From: Waterburya sp.
GTDB lineage: Bacteria; Cyanobacteriota; Cyanobacteriia; Cyanobacteriales; Xenococcaceae
Length of the DNA stretch: 64,000 nt
Reading direction: 5' to 3'
Assembly (NCBI GenBank): GCA_965217895.1
Contig: CBDCJV010000002.1
Location: forward strand, 5,120,001-5,184,000
Position 1 is the stretch's first letter; every line of letters begins with the position of its first letter. The translations under genes and the position numbers were made by a program. The notes under the pieces were generated by a model that saw only the letters and a list, made by a program, of their open reading frames with translations, was not told where the DNA came from and made no database searches. Shown here piece by piece: positions 7,195-41,044 of the stretch.

Positions 7195-10167
7195 ATTACC
7201 GTAATTAGTAGAACTGCTTATCCTCAGTTCAAGCGTTATCCATCCAATAAAGAACTACACGAACTTTACACTCCAACGGCTGAAGAAATAAAGTTTGTTA
7301 CCAGTCGCACCAGAAGCAAGATAGGACTATTGGGATTGATGGTGATGCTAAAATCATTTCAAAAATTGGGCTATTTTACTCATCCAGAATTAATCCCCCA
7401 GCCAATTATTATTCACCTCCGCACCTGTCTAAAATTAAATTACCAAGTCTCTCCCATTCCTTCCCTACGGTCAATTCGCTACTATCAAGAAGCCATTAGA
7501 GAATACCTGAACATTAGTCCCTATAATAATCGAGGTCAAGAGTTAGCAGCAGTAGCTATTAGAGATGCAGCCTTTGTCAGAGATCATCCCGCAGATTTAA
7601 TCAACGTAGCCATTGAAGAGTTAGTAAGACAACGCTACGAGTTACCAGCCTTCAGCACTTTAGATCGTTTAGCCTGTCATATTCGCTCGATTGTAAATAC
7701 CCGTTTGTTCAAACGAGTAGCCCGCAAACTATCTCCCACTGATAGGCAGAATATAGATGGCTTGCTAGTTCCCGATTCTGTCGATCATACTAATGCCAAT
7801 CTCAACCTCCTCAAATCTTCTCCCAAAAGTCACAAACTCAAGTACATCAAAGAACTACAGGATAAGTTCGATACCATGATGTTGGTGGGAGATGCCCAGA
7901 AATTACTCTCATTTATCCCCGCGACCAAAGTTAAATCTTTTGCTGCATTAGCCAGAACTCTGGATATTTCCGAATTTAACGATTTCAGGCTGCCCAAACG
8001 CCGAACTTTATTGCTGTGCTTGCTCTATCAGGCTCAAGTGAAAACTCGCGACCATATGGTAGAAATGTTTCTCAAGCGGATTAAGAAAATTCACAACAAT
8101 GCTAAAACCAAGTTGGAGTATCTAAGAGAGAAGTATCTCAATCAAACTCAGACCATGTTAGAAATGTTTGGTGAGATTTTGATTTTTTCCGATAAATCTC
8201 CAAACTATACTCAATTAGGACTCCAGGTACAGGGTTTATTAGACAGCAATGGCGGGACTCCTTTACTGCTAGAACAATACTCAGAAATTGCCTCTGTCAA
8301 TACCAAAGACCATTTCCCCTTACTCTGGTCGTTTTATTCTCCCTATCGCAAGGCATTATTTGACTTGGTAAGGTCCTTAGAAATTTGCTCTACTTCCAAC
8401 GAACAGTCAGTCATCGAAGCAGTACAGTTTGTTCTAGATCATCAGCAGAGAAGAAGTAAATTCTTCAAAGCCAATCTGAATTTAAGTTTTATCGGCGACC
8501 AATGGCTAAAGCTTGTAGTTGTAGAAGTTGATGGCGAAGAATTATTGGTGCGCCGTCAGCTAGAGATTTGTATTTTTTCCCATTTAGCTCAAGAACTCAA
8601 AACTGGAGATGCTTGTGTCATCGGTTCGGAGAATTATGCTGACTTTCGCCAACAGCTATTATCCTGGTCGGAATGCGAGCCGAAATTAGCAGAATACTGT
8701 TCTTCTTTAGGCATTCGCGATACTCCAGAAGAATTTGTCTCCCAACTGCAAGATCGACTTACTACAGTAGCTCGCGAAGTAGATATTATCTGTCAGCAGG
8801 GCGACCAAATAACCATTAATGAAGAAGGAATTCCCGTTCTCAAAAGAATTACCGCTCAAGATAAACCCGACGGTGCAGAAGCCTTGTTTAATGCCATTCG
8901 AGAGCAATTGCCCCAGCGCAGCGTGTTAGATGTTCTCTGTAATGTAGAACATTGGCTTAACTGGACGAGACACTTTGGTCCTCTATCGGGCAGCGAACCC
9001 AAATTATCAAACCCTCAAGAAAGGTATATCCTGACAGCATTTGGTTATGGGTGCAATATTGGTCCTAGCGAGATGGCTCGTCACGTCAGAGGAAAAGTAA
9101 CTTCTCATATGCTTTCCTATACCAACCGCCGTCATGTTACCAGTTCCTATCTAGAAGCTGCGATTAAAGATATCATCAATGCCTATAACCGCCTCAGTCT
9201 TCCCAAATGCTGGGGTAGTGGGAAAAAAGCAGCAGCCGATGGCAGTAAATTTGAAATCTATGAAAATAATTTGATGAGCGAGTATCACATTCGCTATGGA
9301 GGTTACGGCGGAATTGCTTACCATCACGTTTCCGATACTTACATTGCCCTGTTTACCCACTTCATTGCCTGTGGAGTTTGGGAAGCAGTTTATATCCTCG
9401 ATGGACTGCTAAAAAATACTTCTGATATTCAACCCGACACCATCCATGCAGATACTCAAGGACAGTCTTCGACCGTGTTCGCTCTTTCTCACCTGTTGGG
9501 AATTGAATTGATGCCCAGGATTCGTAACTGGAAGGACTTGGATTTTCTCCGTCCCCATAAGGATGAAGTTTACGATTATATCGACCCTCTATTCGATGAT
9601 GTGGCTGAATGGAAGTTAATCCAGACCCACTGGCAAGATTTGATGCGGGTGGTATTGTCGATTAAAGCGGGAAAACTTTTACCCTCAACTGTTCTAAGAA
9701 AGTTGGGCAGTTATAGCCGTAAGAACAGATTGTATCAGGCTTTTCGAGCCTTGGGCAAAGTCATACGCACCATGTATCTTTTGCGATTTATTTCCGATCG
9801 CGCTCTGCGTCAAGAGGTTACTGCCTGTACTAATATCGTTGAGAGCTATCATCATTTTTTGGACTGGTTGTTCTTTGGCAAAGATGGCGTGATTACAGAT
9901 AATGATCCAGTGGAACAGGAGAAGCGGTTGAAATATCTAGATTTGGCGGCTAGTGCGGTAATTCTCCAGAATACAGTAGATATGACTGGGGTAATTCGTT
10001 CTTTGAGTGGGTCGGGATTTAAGATTAATCGTCGGATGCTGGCAACTATGAGTCCTTATATCAACCGCAATCTCAAGCGGTACGGGGATTACGTGGTGGA
10101 TTTGAAGAACATTCCTCAACCATTTGAGGGGGCGATCAACCTGCCAGTAGAGATTTTTGAAACATAG
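7195..10167 (+). CDS. tnpA: Tn3 family transposase; the frame opens at ATT 7195, upstream of the listed ORF start 7330
   Basis: In-frame I-T-V-I-S-R-T-A-Y-P N-terminus (cf. Tn3-type M..I.RTAYP); DGS, HADTQGQS, NIVESY DDE motifs. Confidence 0.92.
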   Translation: MTVISRTAYPQFKRYPSNKELHELYTPTAEEIKFVTSRTRSKIGLLGLMVMLKSFQKLGYFTHPELIPQPIIIHLRTCLKLNYQVSPIPSLRSIRYYQEAIREYLNISPYNNRGQELAAVAIRDAAFVRDHPADLINVAIEELVRQRYELPAFSTLDRLACHIRSIVNTRLFKRVARKLSPTDRQNIDGLLVPDSVDHTNANLNLLKSSPKSHKLKYIKELQDKFDTMMLVGDAQKLLSFIPATKVKSFAALARTLDISEFNDFRLPKRRTLLLCLLYQAQVKTRDHMVEMFLKRIKKIHNNAKTKLEYLREKYLNQTQTMLEMFGEILIFSDKSPNYTQLGLQVQGLLDSNGGTPLLLEQYSEIASVNTKDHFPLLWSFYSPYRKALFDLVRSLEICSTSNEQSVIEAVQFVLDHQQRRSKFFKANLNLSFIGDQWLKLVVVEVDGEELLVRRQLEICIFSHLAQELKTGDACVIGSENYADFRQQLLSWSECEPKLAEYCSSLGIRDTPEEFVSQLQDRLTTVAREVDIICQQGDQITINEEGIPVLKRITAQDKPDGAEALFNAIREQLPQRSVLDVLCNVEHWLNWTRHFGPLSGSEPKLSNPQERYILTAFGYGCNIGPSEMARHVRGKVTSHMLSYTNRRHVTSSYLEAAIKDIINAYNRLSLPKCWGSGKKAAADGSKFEIYENNLMSEYHIRYGGYGGIAYHHVSDTYIALFTHFIACGVWEAVYILDGLLKNTSDIQPDTIHADTQGQSSTVFALSHLLGIELMPRIRNWKDLDFLRPHKDEVYDYIDPLFDDVAEWKLIQTHWQDLMRVVLSIKAGKLLPSTVLRKLGSYSRKNRLYQAFRALGKVIRTMYLLRFISDRALRQEVTACTNIVESYHHFLDWLFFGKDGVITDNDPVEQEKRLKYLDLAASAVILQNTVDMTGVIRSLSGSGFKINRRMLATMSPYINRNLKRYGDYVVDLKNIPQPFEGAINLPVEIFET

Positions 10168-21838: not shown

Positions 21839-23471
21839 CCCTCTTTTGTCACTTTCCGAAACTTGAATTACAATAGAAAAAATTTTTAGAAGCTGAGAGA
21901 GAGAGAGGGCAATGGATGTAGAATTACAGATTCTCAACAGGCGAGTGGAATAAGCTCCCTAGACGGGAGCATTTCCTCGCCTCAAACATTTAAAGCGATC
22001 GCCAACATCTACGGTTTCCATAATAGATCGTTATTGCGACTCTTATAATGACTTGTTTTCTAATGACTTGTTTTCTGATGTCAGAAATTATGAATGTTTC
22101 AAATATTTACATCAAGGAATTATCTCATCAATCAAAAGAAAATCATTACCAGAGATAGCCAACTCGCGCGTTCCCTAGCGTCTTGAAAAGACGCGGGGTC
22201 GCTCGTCAAAGTAGTAGGAGTATCTTCATCTCAATCATTACATCATTTCGTAGCTAATTCACCTTGGTCAATAACAGAATTAAGAACTAGAAGATTAACT
22301 TTATTAACTTTAACTAAAAATACTTTAAAAGAACGAAAAATCACGTTGGTAATTGACGAAACAGGAGATAGAAAAAAAGGAAAGAAAACCGATTATGTAG
22401 CTAGGCAGTATTTGGGAAGCGTAGGCAAAATAGACAACGGTATAGTATCGGTAAATGCTTATGGTGTTTATGAGAATATAACTTTTCCTCTATTGTTTAA
22501 AATCTTCAAACCTAAAGGAACATTAAAAGAGTCAGATACTTACAAAACAAAGATTGAGTTAGCATCTTCTATCGTGACTGAGCTAATAGAATTCGGATTT
22601 AAAATTGGATTAGTATTAGCCGATAGTTTATATGGCGAAGCTAGTTCATTTATTAGAACATTGGAGAAATATCAACTACCTTGGGTTGTGGCAATTAGAA
22701 GCAATCATGGAGTCTGGCTGTCTCAAGAACAAAAGGTCAGAGCTAACAAATGGTGTAAATTTAAGAGAACTTTTAGCAACCAAAAAGCGGTGCGACCCCG
22801 CGCCGACGTAAGGCGCAAGGGAACGCGCACCAAGACATCTGAAATAAGGTATATCAGAGAAATAATTGATGGTCGAAGAAATCATAGAACTTATTGGGAA
22901 ATAACTACCGACCCTGAAACTATGCCAGAGAATTCCACTTCTTTTGTAATGACTAATATTCAGTTAAGTCGGAACAAAATGAAACAAACTTTAGGTAATC
23001 TATACGGAATGAGAACATGGGTAGAATATGGATTTCGGCAATGCAAACAAGAATTAGGATGGACTGATTATCGATTTACTAGTTTTCAGGAAATTAATAA
23101 GTGGTGGGAAATAATTTTTTCAGCTTACTGGATGGTCAGTTCCCATTCCAAAGTCTTCTGTGACTTAAATCAATCTCAGACTTTATCTACTTCCAAAATT
23201 CCAAGTGAAAAATTCATTCCTAATTTTAATCTTCATCAACAATGGTCAAACGAAGGGGGATGGAAAACGACCTTAAACAATTTACGTCTAATTATTCAAC
23301 CAACAATTGTATTCTGGATGATTATGCCCTGGTTAGATGTTTTTCCCAATCGTTCTTTGCTACTTGGTTTTCATCAACTCATTGCTGTCATGAATCAATT
23401 TTATTTTTCTTTTCCTGATGGATAGATTTTGTTTTTGCTATTTTTAAATCTCGGAAAGTGACATAAGAGGG
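21839..23471 (+). mobile_element. IS701 family insertion sequence, degenerate
   Basis: 21-bp terminal IRs CCCTCTTTTGTCACTTTCCGA / TCGGAAAGTGACATAAGAGGG (1 mismatch). Confidence 0.92.
21912..23425 (+). pseudogene. IS701 transposase disrupted by micro-insertions and duplications
   Basis: MDVELQIL start; IDETGDRKKGKKTDYVARQYLG, LADSLYG, WVEYGFRQCKQELGW. In-frame stop at 21951; 47-bp insertion at 22161. Confidence 0.9.
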
Positions 23472-27259: not shown

Positions 27260-27269
27260 CTAATAACTT

Positions 27270-27456
27270 AAGTAGCAAGTAGCAGATAGCAGATAGCAAT
27301 GCTTTAAAGTAGTAATTAGCAGATAGCAGATAGCAATGCTTTAAAGTAGTAATTAGCAGATAGCAGATAGCAATGCTTTAAAGTAGCAAGTAGCAGATAG
27401 CAGATAGCAGATAGCAATGCTTTAAAGTAGTAATTAGCAATTAGCAGATAGCAATT
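27270..27456 (+). repeat. Composite tandem repeat: ~37-bp units built from heptamers (TAGCAGA/TAGCAAG) plus ATGCTTTA
   Basis: Four full units (37, 37, 37, 44 bp) and one partial unit; no unique spacers. Confidence 0.92.
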
Positions 27457-27529
27457 AAGAAAGTTCAAAATTTGCTACTTAAGTAAAGCTTGTCAATGAT
27501 AAAATTAAGTTACACAACTTAATTTTATC

Positions 27530-27749
27530 ATGAATAATCATAACATTTCGATACAAGATAGAACTAGAAATTTTGCGAATAGAGTAATAAAAGTCTATGT
27601 AGAATTAAACAAGAGAAAATACGATGATGCTGGTAAAGTTTTGTCTAAACAATTTCTTAGAAGTGGCACTAGCATTGGTGCAAACTGCTGTGAGGCTGAG
27701 TTCGCACAATCGAGAGCAGATTTTAGATCTAAACTAACTATTGCCTTAA
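27530..27749 (+). pseudogene. Four-helix-bundle protein (TIGR02436-like), N-terminal 73 codons
   Basis: RT..FA..VI...LSKQFLRSGTSIGANCCEA..AQSRADF.SKL.IAL; family similarity stops at the element end. Confidence 0.92.
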
Positions 27750-27874
27750 ATTATATAACCCTCAATATTAATAATAAACAACAACAACAATGGTTGTATT
27801 TTTTTCTGTTGAGTAAAGTTACAATTACCCAAATTCTATATTCTTTTACGAGTATTATGGTGTATAGTTAATAC

Positions 27875-28969
27875 ATGATGCTCACACTACAGAAAGGAAC
27901 TGACCCACACACAAATAAAACCATCTGGATAATGCTGGATGAAGACTATCAGGTAATCGAACCGATACAGCGTTATTTGACTTCTTTATGCGCTACCAAG
28001 TCGCCTAATACTGTACAAGCCTATGGAACAGATTTAAAGCGATGGTGGGAATTTCTCGACCATAAGTGCTTGGATTGGCGTAATGTAAATATTCATCAGG
28101 ATTTAGAGGACTTTGCTTATTGGTTGAGAGTAGGAGATACAAAGGTGATTTCTCTACAGCCAGTAGAAGCCGATAGATCGGAGAAGACTATTAATAGAGC
28201 GATTACTGCTGTGTCAACTTTCTACGACTATCACCTGTGCAACCAAACAGTTGATTTTAGCGAGTTTGAGAGGTTTCATGCGATCTATAAAACGGGGAAC
28301 ACCAGAGTCGGTACGACAGGTATATTGACTGGTATTGCCAAAGCAAAACCAACCAGGGAAAAGTTAGTCAAACTCAAAGAAACTAAGAAATTCCCAGGCT
28401 GTCTGACCGATGAGCAAATAGAAACATTAGTTGATGCCTGTAGCAATCTTAGGGACAAGCTAATGATTCTGATGTTTAACGGAACTGGCATACGTAAAGG
28501 TGCGCTTTGTGGCTTAAAACACGAAGACGTTGGGGATTTTGGAGATTACTTTATTCGAGTAGTCAGAAGAGAAGACAACCCTAATGGAGCATTAGTTAAG
28601 ACAAAAGAGAGGACAATTCCAGTAACTAAGGAGCTGCTCCAACTATATGACGAGTACTTAATGAATGAGTATCCAGGCGTGGATTCAGAATATGTGTTTG
28701 TCAATATCTGGGAAGGGGATATCGGTGCGCCAATAATGCTGACATTGCCTAACAAAATACTTACAGGCTTGGAAGAAAAAACAGGTATTAGAGTTTATCC
28801 ACATTTATTTAGACATACTTATGCCACTCGTCTTTTGAAAGCGGGATATTCACCAGAGAGAGTCAAATATTTGTTGGGTCACGCTAGTATTGCTACCACT
28901 TTGGATGTCTATTCTCATGTCATCAACGAAACAAATCTATGGGAAGTAATCGAGAGAGAAGAAAAATGA
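27875..28969 (+). CDS. Tyrosine recombinase 1 (Tn554 TnpA-like)
   Basis: SPNTVQAY, GIRKG, PHLFRHTYAT, LLGHASIATT..VY. Confidence 0.93.
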   Translation: MMLTLQKGTDPHTNKTIWIMLDEDYQVIEPIQRYLTSLCATKSPNTVQAYGTDLKRWWEFLDHKCLDWRNVNIHQDLEDFAYWLRVGDTKVISLQPVEADRSEKTINRAITAVSTFYDYHLCNQTVDFSEFERFHAIYKTGNTRVGTTGILTGIAKAKPTREKLVKLKETKKFPGCLTDEQIETLVDACSNLRDKLMILMFNGTGIRKGALCGLKHEDVGDFGDYFIRVVRREDNPNGALVKTKERTIPVTKELLQLYDEYLMNEYPGVDSEYVFVNIWEGDIGAPIMLTLPNKILTGLEEKTGIRVYPHLFRHTYATRLLKAGYSPERVKYLLGHASIATTLDVYSHVINETNLWEVIEREEK

Positions 28970-30444
28970 GCTTAAATCAATTTGATTGGCTAGACGATTA
29001 TCAAGATCTATTTGAAGAAAAGCTACCGTCGCAATTATTATTAAATCCTCTGCTACAAAAAAATATATGGCATACAGTTAATGATTTAAACTTGAAGATT
29101 AGTCCGCATCAAAAAGTATGGACTCTTAACTTTCAGAGTATTTCTCAAGATTGGTTTAGACTTCTTGTCAAGCTATACATATTAGTCAAAGCCAAACCAA
29201 ATCAGCCTGGTAATACCATCAAAGGGTTTGTTATTTATTTGAGAGGATTCTCTAAGTTTTTAGACAAAAGAAATATTTACAGTCCCAAACATATAGATAA
29301 TCAAGTATTTGAAGAATTTGACTATTATCTAAAAGCTAAAGGGCTAAAAGATAGCTCTCTGGGACATTATCGAAGTACAATCTGCAATTTTTTCGATACC
29401 TGCCGTACTGAAGGATGGATTGATGTTAATACTTATTGGTTTAGAGGCAAGCGCAACAGAGTTCATGTTAACAACGATGAAGTTGACTACATTCCCGAAG
29501 AAGTTTGGCATCAACTAGAAGAAAATCTACATTACTTGCCAGAACCAGTACAGAGGATGATCCTGGTAATAAAAACAACAGGTATTCGAGGTGGCGAACT
29601 TTTAAATTTACCATTGGACTGTCTGAGGAAAAGAGGTAAGCAATGGAGGCTTCGTCTTACAACAGAGAAATACGACATTAAAGATGAAATACCAATAACT
29701 GTTCCAGAATTAGTTGCAGTAATTAAAGAACAACAAAAATACATAAAACAAATTTTCGGTGATAAATTTGATAATTTATTTTGTAGCAATCATCCTGGTC
29801 ATCATCGCAAAGATGGAACTCTTTCTTTTTCTCCTAACTCTAGTGTGATGAGTACAGGTACTTTTAACTTATGGCTGAATAGATTAGCCGAAAAAATTAA
29901 CATCCTTACTTCAGAAGGTGAAATCTACGAGTTTAAATCTCATCAATTTAGAAGGACAGTGGGTACTGTTATGACCAATGCAGGTGTCAGAGATTTAATT
30001 GCTCAAAAATATCTCAGACATCGTAGTCCAGATATGTTGCCCCATTATCAACATCTTCTTAAGCAAACATTAGGAGATGAATTTGAGGAGTTGATTAAGG
30101 ATAAAAAATATCATGATATATCGGGAAAAGTAGTCGAAATAATTAAAGGTAAAAATCCGATTACTGAATTTATTCGTCGCAAAATGTATCCTTTTACAAC
30201 CCAATACGGGGAATGCCATCGACCAATTTTAAAATCACCCTGTCAAACAGTTAATGCTTGCTGGAGATGCGAATATTGGCGAATAACCGATGGTGATTTG
30301 AATTATCTCAAAGAAGATTTTGCGAGAGTCGAGGAAGAATTAAAGGTAGCCAAAACACTTTCTATGACTAGGCAACAACAAGGATTAGAAGATGACAGGA
30401 ATAACTTAAGTGCGATTATTCAAGGTGTAGAAGAAAACAGATGA
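28966..30444 (+). CDS. Tyrosine recombinase 2 (Tn554 TnpB-like, C-terminal Cys cluster)
   Basis: TGIRGGE, SHQFRR, YLRH..P.M..HY, YGEC..PC...NAC.RC. The ATG at 28966 overlaps the upstream stop (ATGA). Confidence 0.92.
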   Translation: MSLNQFDWLDDYQDLFEEKLPSQLLLNPLLQKNIWHTVNDLNLKISPHQKVWTLNFQSISQDWFRLLVKLYILVKAKPNQPGNTIKGFVIYLRGFSKFLDKRNIYSPKHIDNQVFEEFDYYLKAKGLKDSSLGHYRSTICNFFDTCRTEGWIDVNTYWFRGKRNRVHVNNDEVDYIPEEVWHQLEENLHYLPEPVQRMILVIKTTGIRGGELLNLPLDCLRKRGKQWRLRLTTEKYDIKDEIPITVPELVAVIKEQQKYIKQIFGDKFDNLFCSNHPGHHRKDGTLSFSPNSSVMSTGTFNLWLNRLAEKINILTSEGEIYEFKSHQFRRTVGTVMTNAGVRDLIAQKYLRHRSPDMLPHYQHLLKQTLGDEFEELIKDKKYHDISGKVVEIIKGKNPITEFIRRKMYPFTTQYGECHRPILKSPCQTVNACWRCEYWRITDGDLNYLKEDFARVEEELKVAKTLSMTRQQQGLEDDRNNLSAIIQGVEENR

Positions 30445-32219
30445 TGGAAATAAATTGGTCTAGAGATTATCAGCATGAATTTATTTGTCCTCATTGCGAT
30501 ATTCAAGGTTTACGTTTAGCTGGCAAAGACAATTATACAAATAGGAAACTATTTAGATGCTCCAAATGTAGAAAAAGAATTTCTCAGTGTGTAAATATAA
30601 AATTTCCTAATAGTAATACTGGTATTAATTGGAACAAAGATTATAAAATAGGAGAGTTTGCTTGCCCCAATAAAGAATGTAATTCAAGGGATATCAGGCT
30701 TGCTAGCCAATCTAAAAAAAAGCAGCGTTTTACGTGTAATATTTGTGGAACTAAAACTAGAGAATCAATAGATCTTACGGAAAGCAATTTAGGTCAATAT
30801 GCTCATAAAAGACCAGTTAAGCCATTTTCTTTTCAAGACGATAAATGGGATATTAGGGCAATTAAATCACCAGCAAATAAACAAGAGAAGATTCTAATTG
30901 CTAACTTTCATACTGTAAAAACAAACTGGTTTAGAAATTTAACCAAGCACTACACATACCACCTCTGTAAGCTCAATAAACCTATAGGTGCAATTGAGTA
31001 TCATTTGATTAATCTTCGTATTTTTTCTCGGTATTTAGTAGAGAAAAATATAACTAATATAAATTTAATTAGCCGAAGTTTAATTCTTGATTTTCTCGCT
31101 TGGGATAATACGGGTGTAGACGCTACCAGAAAAAGACTCTCGACACTTAGAGATTTCTTCTGGACTGGTAATGTGCAGAATTGGTTTGTACTTGACCCAG
31201 ATCTTGTAAGAGATAATGATTATCCTAAAGCGAAGGTAAGCAATCCTGACCCAATACCAGATAGCGTTCGAGAACAGATTGAAAGCAATTTACATAAGCT
31301 ACCAGAGCCTATTGCTAGAATGTGGATTATTGCTTTTTTCACAGCAATGCGACCTGGAGAACTAGCTTTATTAAAGAAAGGCTGTTTGGTACAAGAGGGT
31401 AGCCACTGGAGCATTACTTGGCAACGTGGAAAAAACCGAGATTTTCACACAGTTCCAATTACAAGAATCATTGCCAAAGTAGTTCAAGAACAGCAGGATT
31501 ACATAGAGCAATTATGGGGAACTGAATGGGATTACTTGTTTTGTCATTATCAGCGACCTTCAAGCACAAGGCAATATAGCAATATAGATCCTGTTCAAAA
31601 AGTAATACCGAAAAATAATAGCCTGTTTTATGGAGCGATTGAATATCTAATCGAAACAGAAGATATTCGGGATGATAATGGTAAGTTAGCGACATTTAGT
31701 CCACATTTAATTAGGCATACACGCCTAACTCAATTATTTGAGCAAGGACACGACTTGTCAGTAGTTAGTGCATGGGCTGGACACAAAAGATTGGCAACAA
31801 CGAGTAATTTTTACACTCAAGTTAGTTGTGAACTAATTGAAAAAGAAGCAGGTCATATTCAAAAAGCTCTGTTTAATGCAGATGGTCAATACCATCAATA
31901 TGAATCATTACCTAAATCCTTCTGGAAAGATCCTCAAGCTCATAAATTAGATCTTCCTGGCGACCATATTAACACACCTATTTATGGCTACTGTGGGCTA
32001 CCGTTAAATGAGCGTTGCAACAAGTTTAGAGCTTGTTATACTTGTCACTCTTTTGTTGCCTTCCCTGAGAAACTTGGACAATACATCAAACTCCGTGATG
32101 AATTGAGAGCCAAAGAGTCACGAGCTTTAGCGAATGGTCAAGGTGTATTAGTAGAACAATTTAGTAGACAAGCCGACCAACTAGACAAAATAATTGCATC
32201 GTTACAGGAGGCAGCATGA
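30441..32219 (+). CDS. Tyrosine recombinase 3 with two N-terminal zinc-ribbon repeats
   Basis: CPHC..CSKC and CPNKEC..CNIC; AMRPGE, PHLIRH, WAGH...T..FY, YGYC..C...RAC.TC. Confidence 0.92.
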   Translation: MMEINWSRDYQHEFICPHCDIQGLRLAGKDNYTNRKLFRCSKCRKRISQCVNIKFPNSNTGINWNKDYKIGEFACPNKECNSRDIRLASQSKKKQRFTCNICGTKTRESIDLTESNLGQYAHKRPVKPFSFQDDKWDIRAIKSPANKQEKILIANFHTVKTNWFRNLTKHYTYHLCKLNKPIGAIEYHLINLRIFSRYLVEKNITNINLISRSLILDFLAWDNTGVDATRKRLSTLRDFFWTGNVQNWFVLDPDLVRDNDYPKAKVSNPDPIPDSVREQIESNLHKLPEPIARMWIIAFFTAMRPGELALLKKGCLVQEGSHWSITWQRGKNRDFHTVPITRIIAKVVQEQQDYIEQLWGTEWDYLFCHYQRPSSTRQYSNIDPVQKVIPKNNSLFYGAIEYLIETEDIRDDNGKLATFSPHLIRHTRLTQLFEQGHDLSVVSAWAGHKRLATTSNFYTQVSCELIEKEAGHIQKALFNADGQYHQYESLPKSFWKDPQAHKLDLPGDHINTPIYGYCGLPLNERCNKFRACYTCHSFVAFPEKLGQYIKLRDELRAKESRALANGQGVLVEQFSRQADQLDKIIASLQEAA

Positions 32220-33061
32220 GCAGCGGTAACGATGATACAAGAGAGTTTAGAGTCAATAACCTCAAAAAGACTCAGGAACAGAGGAAGCAAGAATCTCAGG
32301 ATCGAGTTTATCAAGCTATTGAGCGATTGCAGAAACTCAATGCCAAGATCAACTTTCACACTATAGCTAGAGAAGCGCAGGTTAGTGTTAGTTATCTCTA
32401 TAAATATCCAGAGATAAAGCAACATATAGGAGTGCTAAGAAGCAAACAAAACTCTTTACCTGTTTCTCCTGTAGCCAAACCTAATTCTACGTCTCATGGC
32501 AAAGTAGTCACCCGTCTTCAAGAGAGAATCAAAAAGCTGGAAGCGGAGAATAAAGAACTCAAACGTAAGTGTGAAGCTTTAGCTGGTCAAGTTTATCGAG
32601 TTCATTATTTGGAATCTCAGGTAGAAAGATTACAGAAACAAAATGAAGACTTGAAAAGTAAATTGGGCGAACAAGAAATTGCCAGAAAAGTTACACCTAT
32701 TGACAAAAAGAGAAAGACCAAATCTGCTGCTTTCAAGGATGTCCAATCGGAATTAGATGAGCTGGGAATTACTCTGAATCCAACTCTCACTAAAACTATT
32801 AAGGTAGCCAGCGAAGAAACTGTATTAGCTGCAATTGAAGCACTCAAAGAGCAATCTTTCAAACAAGATATTCCTAACCCTGGCGGTTGGCTGAACAAGG
32901 CAATCAAAGAAGGTTGGATAAAAGCAGAACCCACCTCTAGTAAGCCATCAGTTTCCCCACAACCAAAAATCGTTACTGCTACAGATAAAGCAAATAAGAA
33001 ATTAATTTCTCCTAACAAGCTCAAGCAATTAAGCAATTTATTCAACAATCAAGATGACTGA
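32216..33061 (+). CDS. TnpC/DUF6262-like HTH-coiled-coil protein with extra C-terminal domain
   Basis: AI.RL....KINF..IAREAQVS.SYLY.YPEI, coiled coil, then IPNPGGWLNKAIKEGW. Confidence 0.8.
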   Translation: MSSGNDDTREFRVNNLKKTQEQRKQESQDRVYQAIERLQKLNAKINFHTIAREAQVSVSYLYKYPEIKQHIGVLRSKQNSLPVSPVAKPNSTSHGKVVTRLQERIKKLEAENKELKRKCEALAGQVYRVHYLESQVERLQKQNEDLKSKLGEQEIARKVTPIDKKRKTKSAAFKDVQSELDELGITLNPTLTKTIKVASEETVLAAIEALKEQSFKQDIPNPGGWLNKAIKEGWIKAEPTSSKPSVSPQPKIVTATDKANKKLISPNKLKQLSNLFNNQDD

Positions 33062-34373
33062 TAACAAATTCCCCCCCACTAACATAGAAGCTGAAGAAGC
33101 CATATTAGGAAGCATTTTATTTGACCCTGGTGCTATTAGTATTGCTGCTTCTATCCTCCCTGTTGAGGCATTTTATGTTGCTGCCCATCGTCATATTTAC
33201 AAAGCAGCATTAGAGTTACATAATAAAGACAAGTTGACAGACTTTATGGGCATTTCTACTTGGTTAAAAGACCATAAATCATTAACTAAAGCAGGAGGTA
33301 CAGCCAAGTTATCTCAACTGCTTAATCGTACTGTCTCAGCAACTAATATTGACCGCTACATTAATCTGGCTTTAGAAAAGTATCAGCGTCGTCAACTCAT
33401 AGCAACAGCTAATGAAATTGAGGCTTTGGGATATGATAATGCTACCGAACTAGAAACAGTTTTCAATACCTCAGAAGAGAAAATATTTAACCTTACTACC
33501 AACAAGCAAGACAAATTCAAACCTATACCGATTGACGATTGTCTGGCATCAGTATTCAACAAAATAGAACAAGGTTCATCTCCTGCCTATTCTACTGGAT
33601 TAGATGATTTAGATGCTCTGATTGGGGGATTAATTAAACAAGATTTGATTGTAATTGCTGCTAGAGCTTCTATGGGCAAAACTTGGTTGGCTTGCCATCT
33701 GGCTAATCACATTGCCAGCGAGCAACAAAAGCCTGTAGTCTTCTTCTCGGCTGAGATGTCGAGCGAACAGCTAACTAAAAGATTCCTCTCAATGCACTCT
33801 GGTATTGATTCTCATAGGCTAATACACAATGAAATTTACGAGGATGAATATGATGTTTTAGTTAATGGTTTGACTCAATTGGCTGAATTACCTATCATCA
33901 TCGACGATACTCCTGCTACTCAGCTAACACCTTCTAAAGTTCGTTCTGTCCTGCGCAGAATCGTTTCTGAGAAAGGCGAACTAGGCTTAGTAGTCTTAGA
34001 TTATATTCAGAAGCTTGGCGACAGAGCAGCAGGGAATAGAGCGCAGACAGTAGGTAAGTTTTCAGGGGCATTTAAAGACATTGCTAAAGAGTTTGACGTT
34101 CCTTTTGTGGCATTGGCTCAAATCAATCGAGGTGTTGAATCTCAGGCAAATAAACGCCCTTTAATGTCTGATATAAAAGACAGTGGTGATATCGAGCAGG
34201 ACATGGATTTGGGTTTGATGCTGTATCGGGACGATTACTACAACGATGATACTGACAACTTAAGCATAATGGAGATAATTGTAGGAAAGAATCGTAACGG
34301 TGGAACAGGGACTTGTAAAATTTTGTTTGAGCTAGATACAGGGATTTTCAAAAGTTTAAACAGTGTAAAATAA
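33054..34373 (+). CDS. dnaB: DnaB-family replicative helicase (element-borne)
   Basis: PP.NIEAEEAILGSIL, AARASMGKT, FFSAEM, DYIQ, QINRGVE, SDIKDSGDIEQD.D, KNRNG. Confidence 0.95.
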   Translation: MTDNKFPPTNIEAEEAILGSILFDPGAISIAASILPVEAFYVAAHRHIYKAALELHNKDKLTDFMGISTWLKDHKSLTKAGGTAKLSQLLNRTVSATNIDRYINLALEKYQRRQLIATANEIEALGYDNATELETVFNTSEEKIFNLTTNKQDKFKPIPIDDCLASVFNKIEQGSSPAYSTGLDDLDALIGGLIKQDLIVIAARASMGKTWLACHLANHIASEQQKPVVFFSAEMSSEQLTKRFLSMHSGIDSHRLIHNEIYEDEYDVLVNGLTQLAELPIIIDDTPATQLTPSKVRSVLRRIVSEKGELGLVVLDYIQKLGDRAAGNRAQTVGKFSGAFKDIAKEFDVPFVALAQINRGVESQANKRPLMSDIKDSGDIEQDMDLGLMLYRDDYYNDDTDNLSIMEIIVGKNRNGGTGTCKILFELDTGIFKSLNSVK

Positions 34374-34497
34374 TCGCAAGTAATTCAATATATTTTAATA
34401 TATATTAAACAGTACAAATGTATACTAGACTAGGCTTCCTAGTTTGCAACTCTGAAGTGAGCATTGAATTTACAATTATTTTTTATAAGAATTTTAA

Positions 34498-36543
34498 ATG
34501 ATAACCACAGATATATTTAACACAGATGTTGTAAACAAAGTTAGAAAGATAAAGCTCCCTATTTCCAAAGTTATGCTTCCATTATTTGAAGCAGTAGTAA
34601 ATTCAATTCAATCTATTGAAGAAGTTAAAAAAGAAAGCATCAAAGATGGTGTTATTCAAGTTATTATCAACAGACCTTTTGAGGAGATAAGACTTCTTGA
34701 CGGTGGAGATACCTCTCCAGTAGAAGGATTTACTGTTATAGACAATGGAATAGGGTTTAATACGCAAAATTATAAATCTTTTCTAACTGCGGATAGCTCA
34801 CACAAACTTGTCAAAGGATCTAAAGGTGTAGGTAGATTCTTATGGCTAAAAGCATTTACAAATGTAGAAGTAGAAAGCTATTACCAAGAATTAGGAAAAT
34901 ACTATCATCGTAAATTTAATTTTACAAGTGCAGAAAAACCAATATCTTTTCATGAAAATAAAGTTATTGATTCTACAGATATTAAAAATAAGACTACTAT
35001 TAAGCTGAAAGGTCTACAAGGTCACTATAAAATAAAATGTCCTCAAGATATAGAAAAAATAGGACTTAAAATCTTTGAGCATTGTATTTCATATTTTTTA
35101 CTAGAAAATGTCCCTACTATAGAAGTTATTGACGGAGAAAAGAGTCTAGATATTAATAAATTCTTTGCTGAGGATATAAAAAAATATACTGAAACTAAAG
35201 ACATTAACATTGGAAAATGTAATTTTAATATTAAAAGCCTTAGATTTTATAACAGCAGTACATCCGATCACAGACTATTTTTCTGTGGACATCAGAGAGT
35301 AGTTTTAGATGAAGATCTCAGTCAGTATATAGTTGACTTATCACCTACAAGAAAAATCAGAGATGAAAATGGAAAGTTGTTTAAGTATTTAGCTTTTGTT
35401 TCTGGAGAATATTTAGACAATAATGTTAACTCTGAAAGAACTAGCTTTACTATCTCTGAAGATTATGATTTGTTGACTTCTAAAGAGTTTGGAGATGTAT
35501 CTTTTTATGATCTTAAAATGGCAGTAACAGAAGTTATTGACAATACATTGTCTCCATATCTCAAACAAATACAAGAAAACAAAATAGAAAGGTTTAAACA
35601 GTATATTCGGAAAGATGCTCCCGAATATCGTCCTTTATTAAAATATGCTTCAAAAGAATTAGAGCATCTTTCTCCTAGTTTAAATGATACTCAGCTTGAG
35701 TTTCAGCTACATGGATTAATGTCCCAGTTTGAGATTTCATTAAAAGAGACTGGAAAACAAATATTAAGCGATCCAATTGATTGCTTTGAAAAATATCCTG
35801 AATATAGTCAGAAATATCACGAATTTTTAGAGCAGTACACAGATTTTGGTCAGGCAAAATTAGCAAAATACGTAGTTCACAGAAAAATAATTCTGGAACT
35901 TTTCAAGAAAAATCTTAGAAAAGATGATGACGGCAGATTTAAGCTTGAAAAGGATATTCACGAAATAATTTTTCCTTTGAGACGAACATCTGATGAGATC
36001 AATTTTGATGAGCAAAACCTTTGGATTATTGATGAAAGGCTAACATATCATAGATATTTATCTTCAGATCAGGCATTAGATAGTCTAGAAGATCTAAGTG
36101 TAAATAGTACTAGACGACCAGACCTACTTGTATTCAATAATCCTATAGCTTTGGTGGAAGGAGAACAACAGCCTTACTCTTCCGTAGTTATAGTTGAATT
36201 TAAACGTCCTATGAGAGATGGTTATTCTGAAAAAGAAAATCCAGTAACTCAAGTTTACGATTATGTAAGAAAAATCCAGTCTGGCAATTATGAAGACGAG
36301 AACGGTAGGCTAATAAGCCTAGCAAATAGCACTCCCTTTTATGTATACATAATTTGTGATTTAACATCGAAAATAAAAGAATTTGCTGAAAATGCCACTT
36401 TTTTCCCGACACCAGATTTAGGGGGATATTTTGGATACAATACAAGACTTAATACTTACGTCGAGATTATTTCTTTCACAAAATTAATCAATGATGCAGA
36501 AAAAAGAAATAGTGTATTGTTTAAGAAACTTCATATAAATTAA
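34498..36543 (+). CDS. GHKL (HATPase) ATPase fused to a putative PD-(D/E)XK nuclease; candidate defence gene
   Basis: EAVVNSIQS, DNGIGF, KGVGRF, T.I.L Bergerat motifs; C-terminal RPDLLVF...IVEFKRP; AT-rich. Confidence 0.8.
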   Translation: MITTDIFNTDVVNKVRKIKLPISKVMLPLFEAVVNSIQSIEEVKKESIKDGVIQVIINRPFEEIRLLDGGDTSPVEGFTVIDNGIGFNTQNYKSFLTADSSHKLVKGSKGVGRFLWLKAFTNVEVESYYQELGKYYHRKFNFTSAEKPISFHENKVIDSTDIKNKTTIKLKGLQGHYKIKCPQDIEKIGLKIFEHCISYFLLENVPTIEVIDGEKSLDINKFFAEDIKKYTETKDINIGKCNFNIKSLRFYNSSTSDHRLFFCGHQRVVLDEDLSQYIVDLSPTRKIRDENGKLFKYLAFVSGEYLDNNVNSERTSFTISEDYDLLTSKEFGDVSFYDLKMAVTEVIDNTLSPYLKQIQENKIERFKQYIRKDAPEYRPLLKYASKELEHLSPSLNDTQLEFQLHGLMSQFEISLKETGKQILSDPIDCFEKYPEYSQKYHEFLEQYTDFGQAKLAKYVVHRKIILELFKKNLRKDDDGRFKLEKDIHEIIFPLRRTSDEINFDEQNLWIIDERLTYHRYLSSDQALDSLEDLSVNSTRRPDLLVFNNPIALVEGEQQPYSSVVIVEFKRPMRDGYSEKENPVTQVYDYVRKIQSGNYEDENGRLISLANSTPFYVYIICDLTSKIKEFAENATFFPTPDLGGYFGYNTRLNTYVEIISFTKLINDAEKRNSVLFKKLHIN

Positions 36544-36619
36544 AAACTTATCGTATAAAGTATATACAACGATATAATCTATGTCACAAAATATGTGTGG
36601 AATTTTTAGGTCATATAAT

Positions 36620-36766
36620 TTAAAAGAAGCAAGTGAAACTCGCTACTGGATATTACTTTTAATTGATAATAATATTGTCTCAGAAACAAAATTGGCAATG
36701 ATGCTAGATGAATTAAATCAAATAATAAAAATTCTGATTGTAACAACGAAAAAGCTGAAAGAGTAA
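36620..36766 (+). pseudogene. Four-helix-bundle protein, C-terminal part
   Basis: (L)KEASETRYWILLL...EL.QIIKIL continues the 27530 fragment in frame once the element is removed. Confidence 0.92.
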
Positions 36767-36816
36767 TTGCTACTTGTTATCTGCTATCTGCTACTTTAAA
36801 GCATTGCTACTTTAAA
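36765..36816 (-). repeat. Inverted copy of the 27270 repeat unit
   Basis: AATTGCTACTTGTTATCTGCTATCTGCTACTTTAAAGCATTGCTACTTTAAA. Confidence 0.88.
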
Positions 36817-37855: not shown

Positions 37856-40800
37856 GTGACTTCACTATCCTTGTTATCTAATGTTGAACAATTTTTAGAA
37901 TATTGCAGTCATTCTAGTGCCGATGCTTTTGCTGCCTTTAGCGAACTTTTAAATAGCTTGAAATCTCCTGAGACGCAGGCTCAAAATAGGCGGTTTTTTG
38001 GCTTAATTTATCAGACTTGGCAGTCGAAAAATCAGCAAGATTATTACTTTTCTTTTGTTACTCAAACGGTTAAAACCTATAGTGGCGATCGCCGTGAGCT
38101 TTTACTTTTATTATTTCCCAGTATTTTTGCCCCTGAAGAATGGTCGTTTACCTTTTATGAAGGCATATTACGCTATCCTGCCGAGGAATTTTATACCCGT
38201 CGGGTGGTAGAGTTAGGCTGTGGCAGTGGCTGGATTACTCTGGCGATCGCCTTAAATTCTTTGCCTGAAGTTATCTATGGAGTTGATATCAATCCACGGG
38301 CGATCGTCTGTTCGCAATTAAATCTATATTTGAACGCTTTAGACGAACAGGGAAATCCCATTTTAGATAGGGAACAAAAGACTTTAATTGACCGCGTTAA
38401 ATTTGCTCAATCAGATTTACTAGAATTTTTTGACGATTATCCTCATCCCCTCGATCGCATTGTGGGCTGTATTCCTCAAGTACTCAATCCAGAATTGGAA
38501 GTAATGCGAGATTTGGTTAATCAAGGTGCTAATGACGAATTTCTCCATTCTTTGAGCAATTATTGCGAAAAACAGGGCTATGTAGAAGATCAATTTGGCT
38601 TAGGCTTGTTAGCTAAGGCGATCGAGCAGTCAATTCAATTACTCAGACCTACGGGTAAAGTTCTCTTTAACTTTGGGGGCAGACCAGGTGCATCAGTACT
38701 AGAGCGATTGATGACTAGAAGAGGGTTAGAAATTCGCCATATCTGGCAAACCAGAGTCGAACAAGATCCTGATACGGATATTTCTAGCTTAGTAAAGATC
38801 GAACAGGCTACAGGTCATCGGTTTGAGTTTTTTATGACCTCCCGTAGTAATGTGCCAATTAGTGCTGCTACCGCCCAAGTTTACAGCCAGCATGGAGGCA
38901 GAATATATCACTCTGTCTCCGTATACGAAGGGGTTTTGGCTTATCCTAACTGGCTCAAGCAAATTTTCGCCGTACTACAGCATCCTAGTTTGCAGGGGGT
39001 AAAAAGCGCACTAGATTTGACGGAAAATGATGCAGATGTGGCAGAAGAAAGATTTTACTGGCTAGCATCCTTATTTAGTTATCTTAATAACCAGAGCCAT
39101 TTTCCCTATGGACTGACAGCAGGAGAACCAGGATTACGCGATCGCATTACGGCTTATTTTCGCAACTATCATTCAATTCTTTGGCAGCCTGATGATTTAA
39201 TTATTACCCCATCTAGAAAAGAACTAATTGCTAATCTGTTAACAATTTATGAGCCATCGTTAATTGTTATCGATGAGGGATTACAGCAGCTACTACCCGT
39301 AAGTTGGCATGGCAGTCAGCAGGTTATTGAAGCACCGCGACGCATCCCCTTAGTTGGCAAATTAATGGTCAAGCTACGTCCGCAGCTTGTAATTACAGGA
39401 CTCAAAGCTTTTGAAATGACTGCACAAGAGCCTTTTGAATCTTTAGTCAATACAGCCAAAGAAATTGGCGCACTATTGATAGTGGATATTTCTGATAATT
39501 TAAATCTTTCTAGCAACCCCGTTGATAATGGTTTGTTTGAATATCTAGCAGATCGCGGCTTGCCCGATCATGTAATTTTAGTTGCAGACTCGATCAAAAA
39601 TAGACTTTATCCAAGCTTATCTTTATGTATCTGCATAACTAACTCAGAGCCAATTCAACAAGACTTAATTAGAGCAGCAGAGTTGAGCTACAGTCGCGTT
39701 TGCCTGATTACCCAATATTTCTATCAGCAGCTTTTAGAACAGTTATTACACTTCCAGACTACCAGAGTGCAGCCAGCTAATAGGGAGCTTGATAAGTCTC
39801 AAAGCTTTTTTACCTTAGATCGTTCAGCCAATGCCACAAGAGCCTTTGCTCATCCTGCAATTAAAGAAAGTGAATTACCTTTTAAACCATCAACTATTCG
39901 CCTAGACTATGGTGAAAACTGTTTGCCATCTCCTAAAGCACTCAATAAAGCGATCGCCGAAGCCTTTGCCAGACAGGAGATCACCTCAGAAGAATGTGAA
40001 GTATACAAACCCCTATCTGCTATCTGTTCGCAAAAATACGGAATTAAATACGGCGATCGCGATAATTTTATTTATGGTTCAGGAGTAGCATCATTATTTA
40101 GTGCGGTGGTGCAGCAATGCCGTCAAGAACAAGGAGCTTTTATCTTTCCCCAAGGTGCTTACGGTTATTTCCGAGCAACCCTAGATTTCTATGGAGTTGG
40201 AGTACAAACGGTATTGGGAAACCCAGCCCAAGGTTTTAAAATCGATTTATCTAACCTAGAACAGATTCTCAAAACCACTGCTAATCCTTGGCTTTATCTT
40301 AATGCACCCATTTCTAATCCCACAGGAGCGTTATATTCTGCTCCAGAATTACAGTCAATTATTCAATTAGCTTGGCGGTATCAAGCAAAAGTTGTCTTAG
40401 ACACGATTTTTTCTGGTCTAGAATTTGACCAGTCCCAACCCAAAACTGATTTATCATGGCTGCAAGATCGCCGTCACAGCAACTCTAGTAACTTAATCTT
40501 ACTAGGTGGCATTTCCAAGGAATTTTCCGCAGCAGGGATACGTTTTGGCTATTTATATTCTCCCAGTGCCACTATAGTTAGACAAATAGCAGAATTTATT
40601 CCTGGTCAGCTTCCCCAGACTACTATGTATGCTATGCGTCGATTTTTTGAGGGGGTGGTCAAAGACGATGCTGAACTTATTCAACATAGAGAAGCTCAGA
40701 GTCAACTTCTACAGCAAAGAGCCAAACAGCTAACAGCAGTATTGCAGCAATCTGGTTGGACAGCCATTGACCCACGAGGCGGATTGTTTTTAGTAGCAAA

Positions 40801-41044
40801 ACCAAGTTTCCTCTTAGGCAAAACAGTATCTTACAAACAAGATAATGTTAGATATGAGACAGTCATTGATGGAGATTCTATTACTACCGTTTTATTTTCA
40901 AGTGTTGGACTAACGATCAATGGTGCTACCTGGACTGGGTTGCCAAACTATTGCCGTTTTGTCTTATCAGTTTCCGAATCTGAGTTTCAGGAGGCTTTGC
41001 AGCGAATTAAAGAGTTTTACAGTTCATTTGAGGTTGAACTATAG
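37856..41044 (+). CDS. Plant-type methionine S-methyltransferase (SAM methyltransferase plus PLP aminotransferase-like domains)
   Basis: PSIFAPEEWSFTFYEG, ELGCGSGWI, DINPRA, LYLNALD, DRIVGCIPQVLNP, SLSNYC..QGYVEDQFGLGL, FNFGGRPG, DTDISSLV.IE match plant MMT/MmtN as I recall them; 1062 aa. Confidence 0.9.
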   Translation: MTSLSLLSNVEQFLEYCSHSSADAFAAFSELLNSLKSPETQAQNRRFFGLIYQTWQSKNQQDYYFSFVTQTVKTYSGDRRELLLLLFPSIFAPEEWSFTFYEGILRYPAEEFYTRRVVELGCGSGWITLAIALNSLPEVIYGVDINPRAIVCSQLNLYLNALDEQGNPILDREQKTLIDRVKFAQSDLLEFFDDYPHPLDRIVGCIPQVLNPELEVMRDLVNQGANDEFLHSLSNYCEKQGYVEDQFGLGLLAKAIEQSIQLLRPTGKVLFNFGGRPGASVLERLMTRRGLEIRHIWQTRVEQDPDTDISSLVKIEQATGHRFEFFMTSRSNVPISAATAQVYSQHGGRIYHSVSVYEGVLAYPNWLKQIFAVLQHPSLQGVKSALDLTENDADVAEERFYWLASLFSYLNNQSHFPYGLTAGEPGLRDRITAYFRNYHSILWQPDDLIITPSRKELIANLLTIYEPSLIVIDEGLQQLLPVSWHGSQQVIEAPRRIPLVGKLMVKLRPQLVITGLKAFEMTAQEPFESLVNTAKEIGALLIVDISDNLNLSSNPVDNGLFEYLADRGLPDHVILVADSIKNRLYPSLSLCICITNSEPIQQDLIRAAELSYSRVCLITQYFYQQLLEQLLHFQTTRVQPANRELDKSQSFFTLDRSANATRAFAHPAIKESELPFKPSTIRLDYGENCLPSPKALNKAIAEAFARQEITSEECEVYKPLSAICSQKYGIKYGDRDNFIYGSGVASLFSAVVQQCRQEQGAFIFPQGAYGYFRATLDFYGVGVQTVLGNPAQGFKIDLSNLEQILKTTANPWLYLNAPISNPTGALYSAPELQSIIQLAWRYQAKVVLDTIFSGLEFDQSQPKTDLSWLQDRRHSNSSNLILLGGISKEFSAAGIRFGYLYSPSATIVRQIAEFIPGQLPQTTMYAMRRFFEGVVKDDAELIQHREAQSQLLQQRAKQLTAVLQQSGWTAIDPRGGLFLVAKPSFLLGKTVSYKQDNVRYETVIDGDSITTVLFSSVGLTINGATWTGLPNYCRFVLSVSESEFQEALQRIKEFYSSFEVEL

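Follow-up and report, generated by a model that had tools for sequence, protein, structure and literature searches.

The window analysed here is a stretch of 64,000 nucleotides from the genome of the cyanobacterium Waterburya sp. (contig CBDCJV010000002.1, positions 5,120,001 to 5,184,000). It holds a gene for a four-helix-bundle protein that is split by an element with the genes of a Tn554-family transposon, present once in this genome, and the split gene lies in turn between inverted arms of heptamer repeats (Table 1). Positions below are those of the window unless a locus is named, and L and G numbers are our labels for loci and genomes.

Table 1. Split gene, inserted element and enclosing repeat arms, in window positions.
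Feature	Position	Strand	Evidence
Left arm of heptamer repeats (outer cassette), preceding the four-helix-bundle gene	27260..27457	.	inverted repeat I1, 46 nt, 83%
5' half of four-helix-bundle gene, codons 1-73	27530..27748	+	profile matches, open reading frame joining
Left 6-bp spacer CTTAAA, putatively the target's own core by the rule in relatives	27745..27750	+	
Tn554-family element, 8,868 bp	27751..36618	+	four other copies, flanked differently, are identical
Left terminal inverted repeat TTATATAACC, then AAC run conserved in relatives	27751..27760	+	sequence comparison
tnpA-like tyrosine recombinase, 364 aa	27875..28969	+	31% to Tn552-II TnpA, E 3e-46; profile E 2e-69
tnpB1, TnpB-like tyrosine recombinase, 492 aa from this ATG	28966..30444	+	28% to TnpB, E 1e-24
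tnpB2, second TnpB-like recombinase, 592 aa	30441..32219	+	24% to TnpB, E 8e-18
tnpC-like gene (DUF6262) with C-terminal extension, 281 aa	32216..33061	+	32% over 68 aa to TnpC, E 5e-7; profile E 1e-15
DnaB helicase, 439 aa	33054..34373	+	TIGR00665 above cut-off
Cargo, 681-aa protein, weak GHKL-type ATPase match	34498..36543	+	present in identical copies only
Right terminal inverted repeat, 9/10 bases matching left	36609..36618	-	sequence comparison
Right 6-bp spacer TTTAAA, likely brought in from donor site	36619..36624	+	
3' half of four-helix-bundle gene, codons 74-120 and stop	36623..36766	+	profile matches, open reading frame joining
Right arm of heptamer repeats, inverted relative to left arm	36764..36809	.	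inverted repeat

Joining base 27749 to base 36624 gives 363 nt in a single frame, encoding 120 aa with no internal stop, as the first-pass annotation of this DNA had proposed. The two halves match consecutive stretches of the TIGR02436 profile (positions 2-62 and 63-109, both halves above cut-off) and of PF05635 (positions 4-66 and 67-104), a full-length match that places the joined product among the four-helix-bundle proteins of these families, and the joined protein aligns without gaps over residues 1-120 with the intact homologs L232 (81% identity) and L236 (78%). The annotation had taken the excised segment to be 27750-36619 together with one TTAA; the frame that this restores is right, but five bases (TTAAA) rather than four are shared, and comparison with four other copies moves the borders of the element to those in Table 1. 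Either flanking 6-mer can be kept at the joint with the same Ala-Leu-Lys protein as the outcome. At the left junction the 5' half reads through 40 codons of the element and ends 3 nt ahead of tnpA (27746-27871). Translational coupling of the target frame to tnpA was considered and rejected, a stop at most 4 nt before tnpA being found in just 3/30 elements. At the right junction an ATG within the end of the element is in frame with the 3' half, making a 61-aa product possible (36581-36766).

The ends of the element are TTATATAACC and its imperfect inverse. With the annotated Tn552-II genes as reference, the products of all three genes of the tnpA-tnpB-tnpC order that typifies the Tn554 family find a match in the element, and plasmid homologs of its TnpB-like recombinases are annotated as TnpB. 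No variation is seen in the catalytic R, HxxR, H and Y of TnpA or of TnpB1 (28 aligned TnpB1 sequences); in TnpB2 the first catalytic Arg is invariant in 25 sequences and the first His is variable. The N-terminus of TnpB2 carries two CxxC pairs of pairs, with eight invariant or near-invariant cysteines, that are likely zinc ribbons. Modelled structures resembled recombinases (XerH, Cre), and matches to zinc ribbons were weak (Rpb9, E about 0.03), the TnpB2 model being poor (pLDDT 63, pTM 0.36); residues 60-170 of TnpB1 are predicted to form core-binding helices. A promoter scan remained at background level (3 found, 3.3 expected), PADLOC matched neither the ATPase cargo nor TnpA to any of its families, and a search of viral contigs returned one weak 27-aa match and nothing more. 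Two further DnaB-like genes lie in G000 (C2:296435-299221 and C2:4239719-4241055), the first of them split by about 1.5 kb, possibly an intein.

We surveyed 61 genomes of the family with a TnpA threshold of E 1e-40 or better. A match was found in 30, and identical TnpA occurs in two others, once in G056 and three times in G055; among 400 other genomes of a phylum sample, two have a close TnpA. Four further copies (L031, L032, L033 and L034), carried by these two related genomes, equal the element of the window at 8,868/8,868 bases. All five lie at the same codon of four-helix-bundle genes, and these genes are of three distinct paralog types: two of the further copies occupy the orthologous locus (gene halves 97-99% identical, flanking host genes 85-92%), whereas L032 and L034 are in paralogs with left-half proteins only 48% and 51% identical to that of the window. 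The recent insertion suggested by the annotation is thus supported, the element being identical in 5/5 copies whereas the gene halves differ by 1.4-2.8% and the flanking host genes by 8-15%. In one metagenome sample, contigs diverge at the right end of the element into junctions of three types; each is at this codon, and one is in a further paralog found in none of the 257 loci compared. The marine-metagenome element L070, with a TnpA 93% identical, occupies this codon too, in a different paralog again. Five identical copies at one codon, including paralogs only about 50% identical, therefore support targeting, and together with the metagenome junctions and L070 they bear out the preference for this gene family that the annotation had raised.

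The target is one subfamily of the four-helix-bundle genes. Four TIGR02436 genes are present in the genome of the window; one is split, one is empty at the shared site and two have a different motif, and among the three unsplit genes one has a stop inside the match. From the five occupied sites we derived a pattern of 20 fixed and 6 two-fold positions, which at up to three mismatches finds one other match in the 5.3-Mb genome, the intact empty paralog (site at G000 C2:1874620-1874661), a search that is partly circular because the pattern derives from such genes; the same pattern found no empty site left in G055. Insertions elsewhere in four-helix-bundle genes were also seen. At L043:1342-1503 an element with a 92% identical TnpA, its TnpB genes off the contig, lies about 22 codons upstream of the window's site. 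In G050 a distant tyrosine-recombinase element (23% to TnpA) is present in two copies (L150:742-1900 and L151), both inserted in reverse orientation into another four-helix-bundle subfamily, at a codon other than that used in the window, and sharing the AAC-run end motif.

The 6-mers that flank the element of the window are not alike, CTTAAA standing to its left and TTTAAA to its right, and in the identical copies the left/right 6-mers are CTTAAA/CTTAAA (L031), TTTAAA/CTTAAA (L033) and TTACAA/TTACAA (L032 and L034). Two pairs of identical twins among the relatives form a chain from donor to recipient. In G054 they occupy one motif of two TnpB-nuclease genes with flanks 48% alike, with TAGCAA/TATCCA at L035 and TATCCA/TATTAA at L036, such that the right 6-mer of L035 is the left 6-mer of L036; in G498 they occupy two RecD-like genes, with AATACA/AATTCA at L179 and TATTCA/AATACA at L180, and here the right 6-mer of L180 is the left of L179. 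The twins show 0/6,738 and 0/7,113 differences, and in both pairs the apparent donor copy is still occupied. A fingerprint/footprint rule of this kind is described for the elements called SEs, as is an 'att brought-in' model for Tn554 and Tn552-II (PMC10214605, PMC12486829), and SEs are described as forming no empty site while some GInts do yield one (PMC5385486). As far as sequence can tell, the related elements carry this brought-in footprint, with the donor still occupied. The 6-mers of the window would not be a target duplication, and they fit the brought-in rule without proving it. Across 18 elements with both ends located, a hand count gave 10 equal and 8 unequal pairs of 6-mers (4 of the latter by two bases), the right-end search behind part of this count having favoured similar 6-mers. 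Among the matches listed, the assembled contigs of runs X1-X5 gave neither empty-site nor circle joints, which is no evidence of absence because these are assembled contigs only, a form that drops rare forms, and X3 and X5 lack the right end. No RNA dataset carrying the element was found among the matches listed. Higher depth over the element in X1/X2, tried as a sign of replication, was set aside, depth being summed over several strains and copies.

Which of the proteins goes with the choice of target? We compared 31 elements for which TnpA, TnpB1 and a target label were available; six duplicates or twins and the elements lacking flanks had been set aside. The core-binding region of TnpB1 differs according to target: where two elements have TnpA proteins 84% or more identical, residues 60-170 agree at 76-100% (median 98) in the 7 pairs with the same target and at 40-79% (median 52) in the 27 pairs with different targets. 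The TnpB2 zinc region behaves likewise, with medians of 76% and 43%. TnpB1 homologs at 79-85% (P0122-P0125) were also found. The element of the window and L035, for example, are alike at 92% in TnpA, 81% in TnpC and 87% in DnaB, but at 52% and 59% in the TnpB pair. In the TnpA tree the window groups with L035/L068/L044/L041 (100/100), whereas in the TnpB1 tree it is sister to L039 (100/100), whose TnpA falls in another clade; approximately unbiased (AU) tests had each gene reject the grouping of the other (p 4e-8 and 2e-4; 17/31 rows), and the int3 tree was the FastTree version. The conflict between the trees and the divergence of the TnpB pair therefore indicate that the middle pair was exchanged as a module. 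Across these comparisons a change of target goes with divergence of the TnpB pair and not of TnpA.

The left flanks of relatives with TnpA 60-93% identical to the window's were examined by profile, and relatives were found mostly in mobile-element genes. Their targets include TnpB nucleases (two different motifs), RecD-like helicases (more than one site), GIY-YIG and CoiA/T5orf172 proteins, IS4 transposase, Cas1, sigma-70, integrases, a non-specific endonuclease and group II intron reverse transcriptase, with REP transposase a weak profile match and DUF7227 labelled at E 0.048. No Pfam match at E 0.05 was obtained for 11/34 flanks in one set and 8/16 in another. Further labels (methyltransferase, WGR, Rad52-like, endonuclease V and DUF932) were given by motif and are presumptive. 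The same codon is hit repeatedly, for instance by L058/L060/L081, by L037/L184/L185 and by L038/L042/L189/L195. L186 (G712:C1) lies in what we take to be an endonuclease V gene, following a G-V-D-V-G motif of the same kind as in the TnpB-nuclease targets, and its TnpB1 is closest to that of the TnpB-targeting L037. The annotation had proposed a look for related elements at the same codon of TIGR02436 genes and would have counted homologous elements at unrelated targets as evidence against targeting. L070 is such a related element; more distant relatives sit in other gene families, and their unrelated targets do not refute targeting because each lineage has its own fixed target.

The split gene is itself part of a unit that comes and goes. 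Downstream of DUF3769 the whole gene cassette is missing in 27/30 genus loci, including those of the two closest relatives, where the neighbours are unchanged; it is likewise missing at the window locus from metagenome contigs of other strains, and in G056 it is inverted between its heptamer arms. The loci compared for this arrangement were that of the window, L031, L199 and L200. In one strain's contig the arms are kept and some 30 other bases replace the gene. Folded alone, the left arm was no better than its shuffles (z 0.51).

Taking together the anatomy, the homology, the exact ends, the codon-exact occupancy of several paralogs and the donor-to-recipient chain of 6-mers in two related elements, all directly observed, we consider it very probable that this is a Tn554-family transposon with two TnpB paralogs, directed to one conserved codon of a four-helix-bundle subfamily, which likely arrived by copy-in from a circle carrying the left 6 bp of its donor and likely left the gene disabled and not switchable. 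In such a route the circle would be copied out of a donor that stays occupied, possibly with help from DnaB in the copying. The proteins would read a pattern of about 50 bp, made of conserved codon positions that flank a 6-bp core of variable sequence. We think it rather probable that this target is read mainly through the core-binding and zinc-ribbon regions of TnpB1 and TnpB2, with TnpA and TnpC working on the ends of the element. The TnsF of Tsy elements, a recombinase with zinc-finger, core-binding and catalytic parts that binds a conserved target, is a tested precedent for the selection of a coding motif (PMC10293859). Being multicopy and part of a dispensable cassette, the four-helix-bundle gene may be a safe place for insertion. 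More tentatively, and a little short of an even chance in our judgement, the relatives could make up a retargetable family, in which TnpA, TnpC and DnaB form a constant engine and an exchangeable TnpB1-TnpB2 pair sets its aim, each pair reading the conserved codons of one protein motif, mostly in mobile elements. With the same reserve, the proteins that supply such motifs may include TnpB nucleases, IS4 and REP transposases, group II intron reverse transcriptase, integrases, Cas1 and the four-helix-bundle cassettes.

Several points weigh against this account. Transposition, circle and binding are all inferred from sequence. For the window by itself, duplication plus one point change explains the 6-mers equally well, and the identical 6-mers in 10/18 elements, like the lean of the right-end search towards similarity, count on the same side. 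The three genomes that share the identical element may represent dependent samples, and their repeats could have been homogenised by assembly. DnaB is not present in all complete relatives (L179 and L180 lack it). As to the selector, the pairs compared are not independent, unlabelled targets were assumed to be different, and the AU groups were named after the trees had been seen; the TnpB genes of L070 are off its contig, so that the best test pair is missing. L057 lies in a sigma-70 gene, yet its TnpB1/B2 are 84-88% identical to those of GIY-YIG-targeting elements, and a putative methyltransferase site is hit by two lineages that are sisters in no tree and 52% alike in the core-binding region. 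The TnpB genes may also simply evolve faster than tnpA.

If these points are pressed, the alternative with most weight keeps the same element and the same targeting but lets TnpA, TnpC or a host factor choose the target, the TnpB pair diverging for other reasons such as faster evolution, end binding or immunity between elements. In every comparison TnpB1/B2 do vary more than TnpA; L057 and both lineages at the methyltransferase site break a simple one-selector-one-target rule, and the element ends also vary between lineages. However, TnpA is 92-95% identical, and the N-terminal part of TnpC up to 91% identical, between elements with unrelated targets, which therefore leaves little room for these two proteins to read different sites, and we regard a selector outside the TnpB pair as unlikely. 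A chance recent insertion at an AT-rich TTAA, with target duplication and without gene preference, would suit the window taken alone, where a 5-bp direct repeat lies in a 33%-GC stretch; it is contradicted by the paralog insertions, one codon being shared by the five copies, the three metagenome junction types and L070, and TTAA is not required because two copies have TTACAA cores, such that we give this explanation almost no credence. Assembly artefact is a further concern, as the copies come from metagenome-assembled genomes of what could be one community, show zero differences over 8,868 bp across three genomes, and are best held by runs from one sample that may be the source of these assemblies. 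Against this, short-read contigs carry the element as long unbranched pieces without differences that branch exactly at its end into different paralogs, each copy has the left and right halves of its own paralog, and same-codon twins recur in unrelated genomes; that the identical multi-copy pattern is in part artefactual seems very improbable.

The annotation had also suggested a reversible gene switch, analogous to the heterocyst xis elements, in which excision under some condition would restore a needed four-helix-bundle protein. Excision would restore the full reading frame with either 6-mer, and the halves are intact in 4/5 split copies; some GInts are described as giving empty sites (PMC5385486), and interruption elements are known in a few non-heterocyst cyanobacteria (PMC4874684). 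However, the fifth copy, L033, has a nonsense codon in its left half, of the 12 codon differences between the three split alleles at the orthologous locus 8 alter the protein (small numbers), and the site is uninterrupted in 25/27 homologous loci. The cassette is moreover absent from 27/30 genus loci and inverted in G056, and three other TIGR02436 genes are unsplit in the same genome, one of them with the stop inside its match. The described xis elements use one recombinase acting on direct repeats (PMC4874684), whereas this element spreads among paralogs and its relatives occupy mostly mobile-element genes. In the genome of the window, 99.9% complete, nifD was not found above cut-off; a NifH-family search gave one match, present also in non-fixing controls. 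The switch proposal found no support, and we rate it as very unlikely, although excision may occur rarely; for the transposon the split gene is probably no more than a place to land.

Two genes elsewhere in the window may be recorded here. A DDE transposase gene (DDE_5) at 22346-23425 lies upstream of a Crp-like regulator. Beyond the cassette, 37856-41044 encodes a protein of 1,062 aa in which a methyltransferase domain at the N-terminus is combined with a class I/II aminotransferase domain at the C-terminus, and which we take to resemble plant methionine S-methyltransferase.

A literature search, largely of openly available papers, found no published account of a cyanobacterial two-TnpB Tn554-like family, of its DnaB or of its four-helix-bundle targeting. 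What TnpA and TnpB each do in Tn554-type transposition was, in 2012, described as not established (PMC3414803), and the route of Tn554 movement is described as unresolved (PMC10214605). The elements collected here offer matched natural pairs with near-identical TnpA and different targets, so that a choice of site by TnpB becomes testable through a single exchange; the twin copies, in turn, record donor and recipient. If TnpB is the selector, Tn554-family target choice would be assigned to it, the natural selector-target pairs would amount to a code for redirecting tyrosine-recombinase integration, and the family would be a library of protein-guided integrases moving 7-12 kb.

Set beside known systems, the element shares features with several. 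Like SEs it has a 6-bp fingerprint on the left and a footprint on the right, a retained donor and four recombination genes ending in a TnpC counterpart, and the occupied donors of the twin pairs fit the absence of an empty site in SEs. SEs, compared here by description, are reported from Gammaproteobacteria and have two catalytic recombinases and the non-catalytic Tfp, whereas the second gene here is catalytic and both TnpB paralogs keep R, R, H and Y, which sets the element apart from them. RIT elements are said to show a target-gene preference, reportedly noted by Ricker in 2013. They resemble our element in three overlapping recombinase genes, all with the catalytic tyrosine, but their proteins are given as 315-410 aa with 34-bp terminal repeats and no TnpC, as against 364/492/592 aa, 10-bp repeats and a TnpC-like gene here, so that the element is not of this kind (PMC3414803, PMC10214605). 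GInts, also compared by description, likewise have three recombinase genes with a small fourth gene at the 5' end, cargo, an imperfect 6-nt overlap and site-specific insertion in genes; their GinC lacks the first catalytic Arg, which is invariant in all three recombinases here (PMC5385486). Tsy elements pair a plain recombinase with a larger one, TnsF, that has N-terminal zinc fingers, core-binding and catalytic domains, an architecture compared by description only, and they insert at a conserved stretch of a gene coding for a protein motif; they differ in having one TnsF and one known target, comM, which is not the target here, and in having no terminal repeats reported as detected (PMC10293859).

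The xis elements likewise split a gene whose frame excision would restore, but they are described with one recombinase, direct repeats and mostly nitrogen-fixation genes as targets (PMC4874684), unlike the three recombinases, unequal spacers, spread among paralogs and host without nifD of the present case, which falls outside that class. The closest likeness is to the Tn554 family, described with a fixed site in a conserved gene, a left att from the target, a right att from the donor and imperfect terminal repeats (PMC12486829, PMC3414803). Site-specific insertion in a conserved gene holds here, and a right att from the donor without target duplication is found in the related elements, the window's own 6-mers being one base apart. 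Relative to that family the cyanobacterial elements have two TnpB paralogs rather than one, one of them with N-terminal zinc-ribbon motifs, a TnpC with a 160-aa extension, an adjoining DnaB, many target gene families across the lineage and, as read here, a spacer of 6 bp rather than 7 bp.

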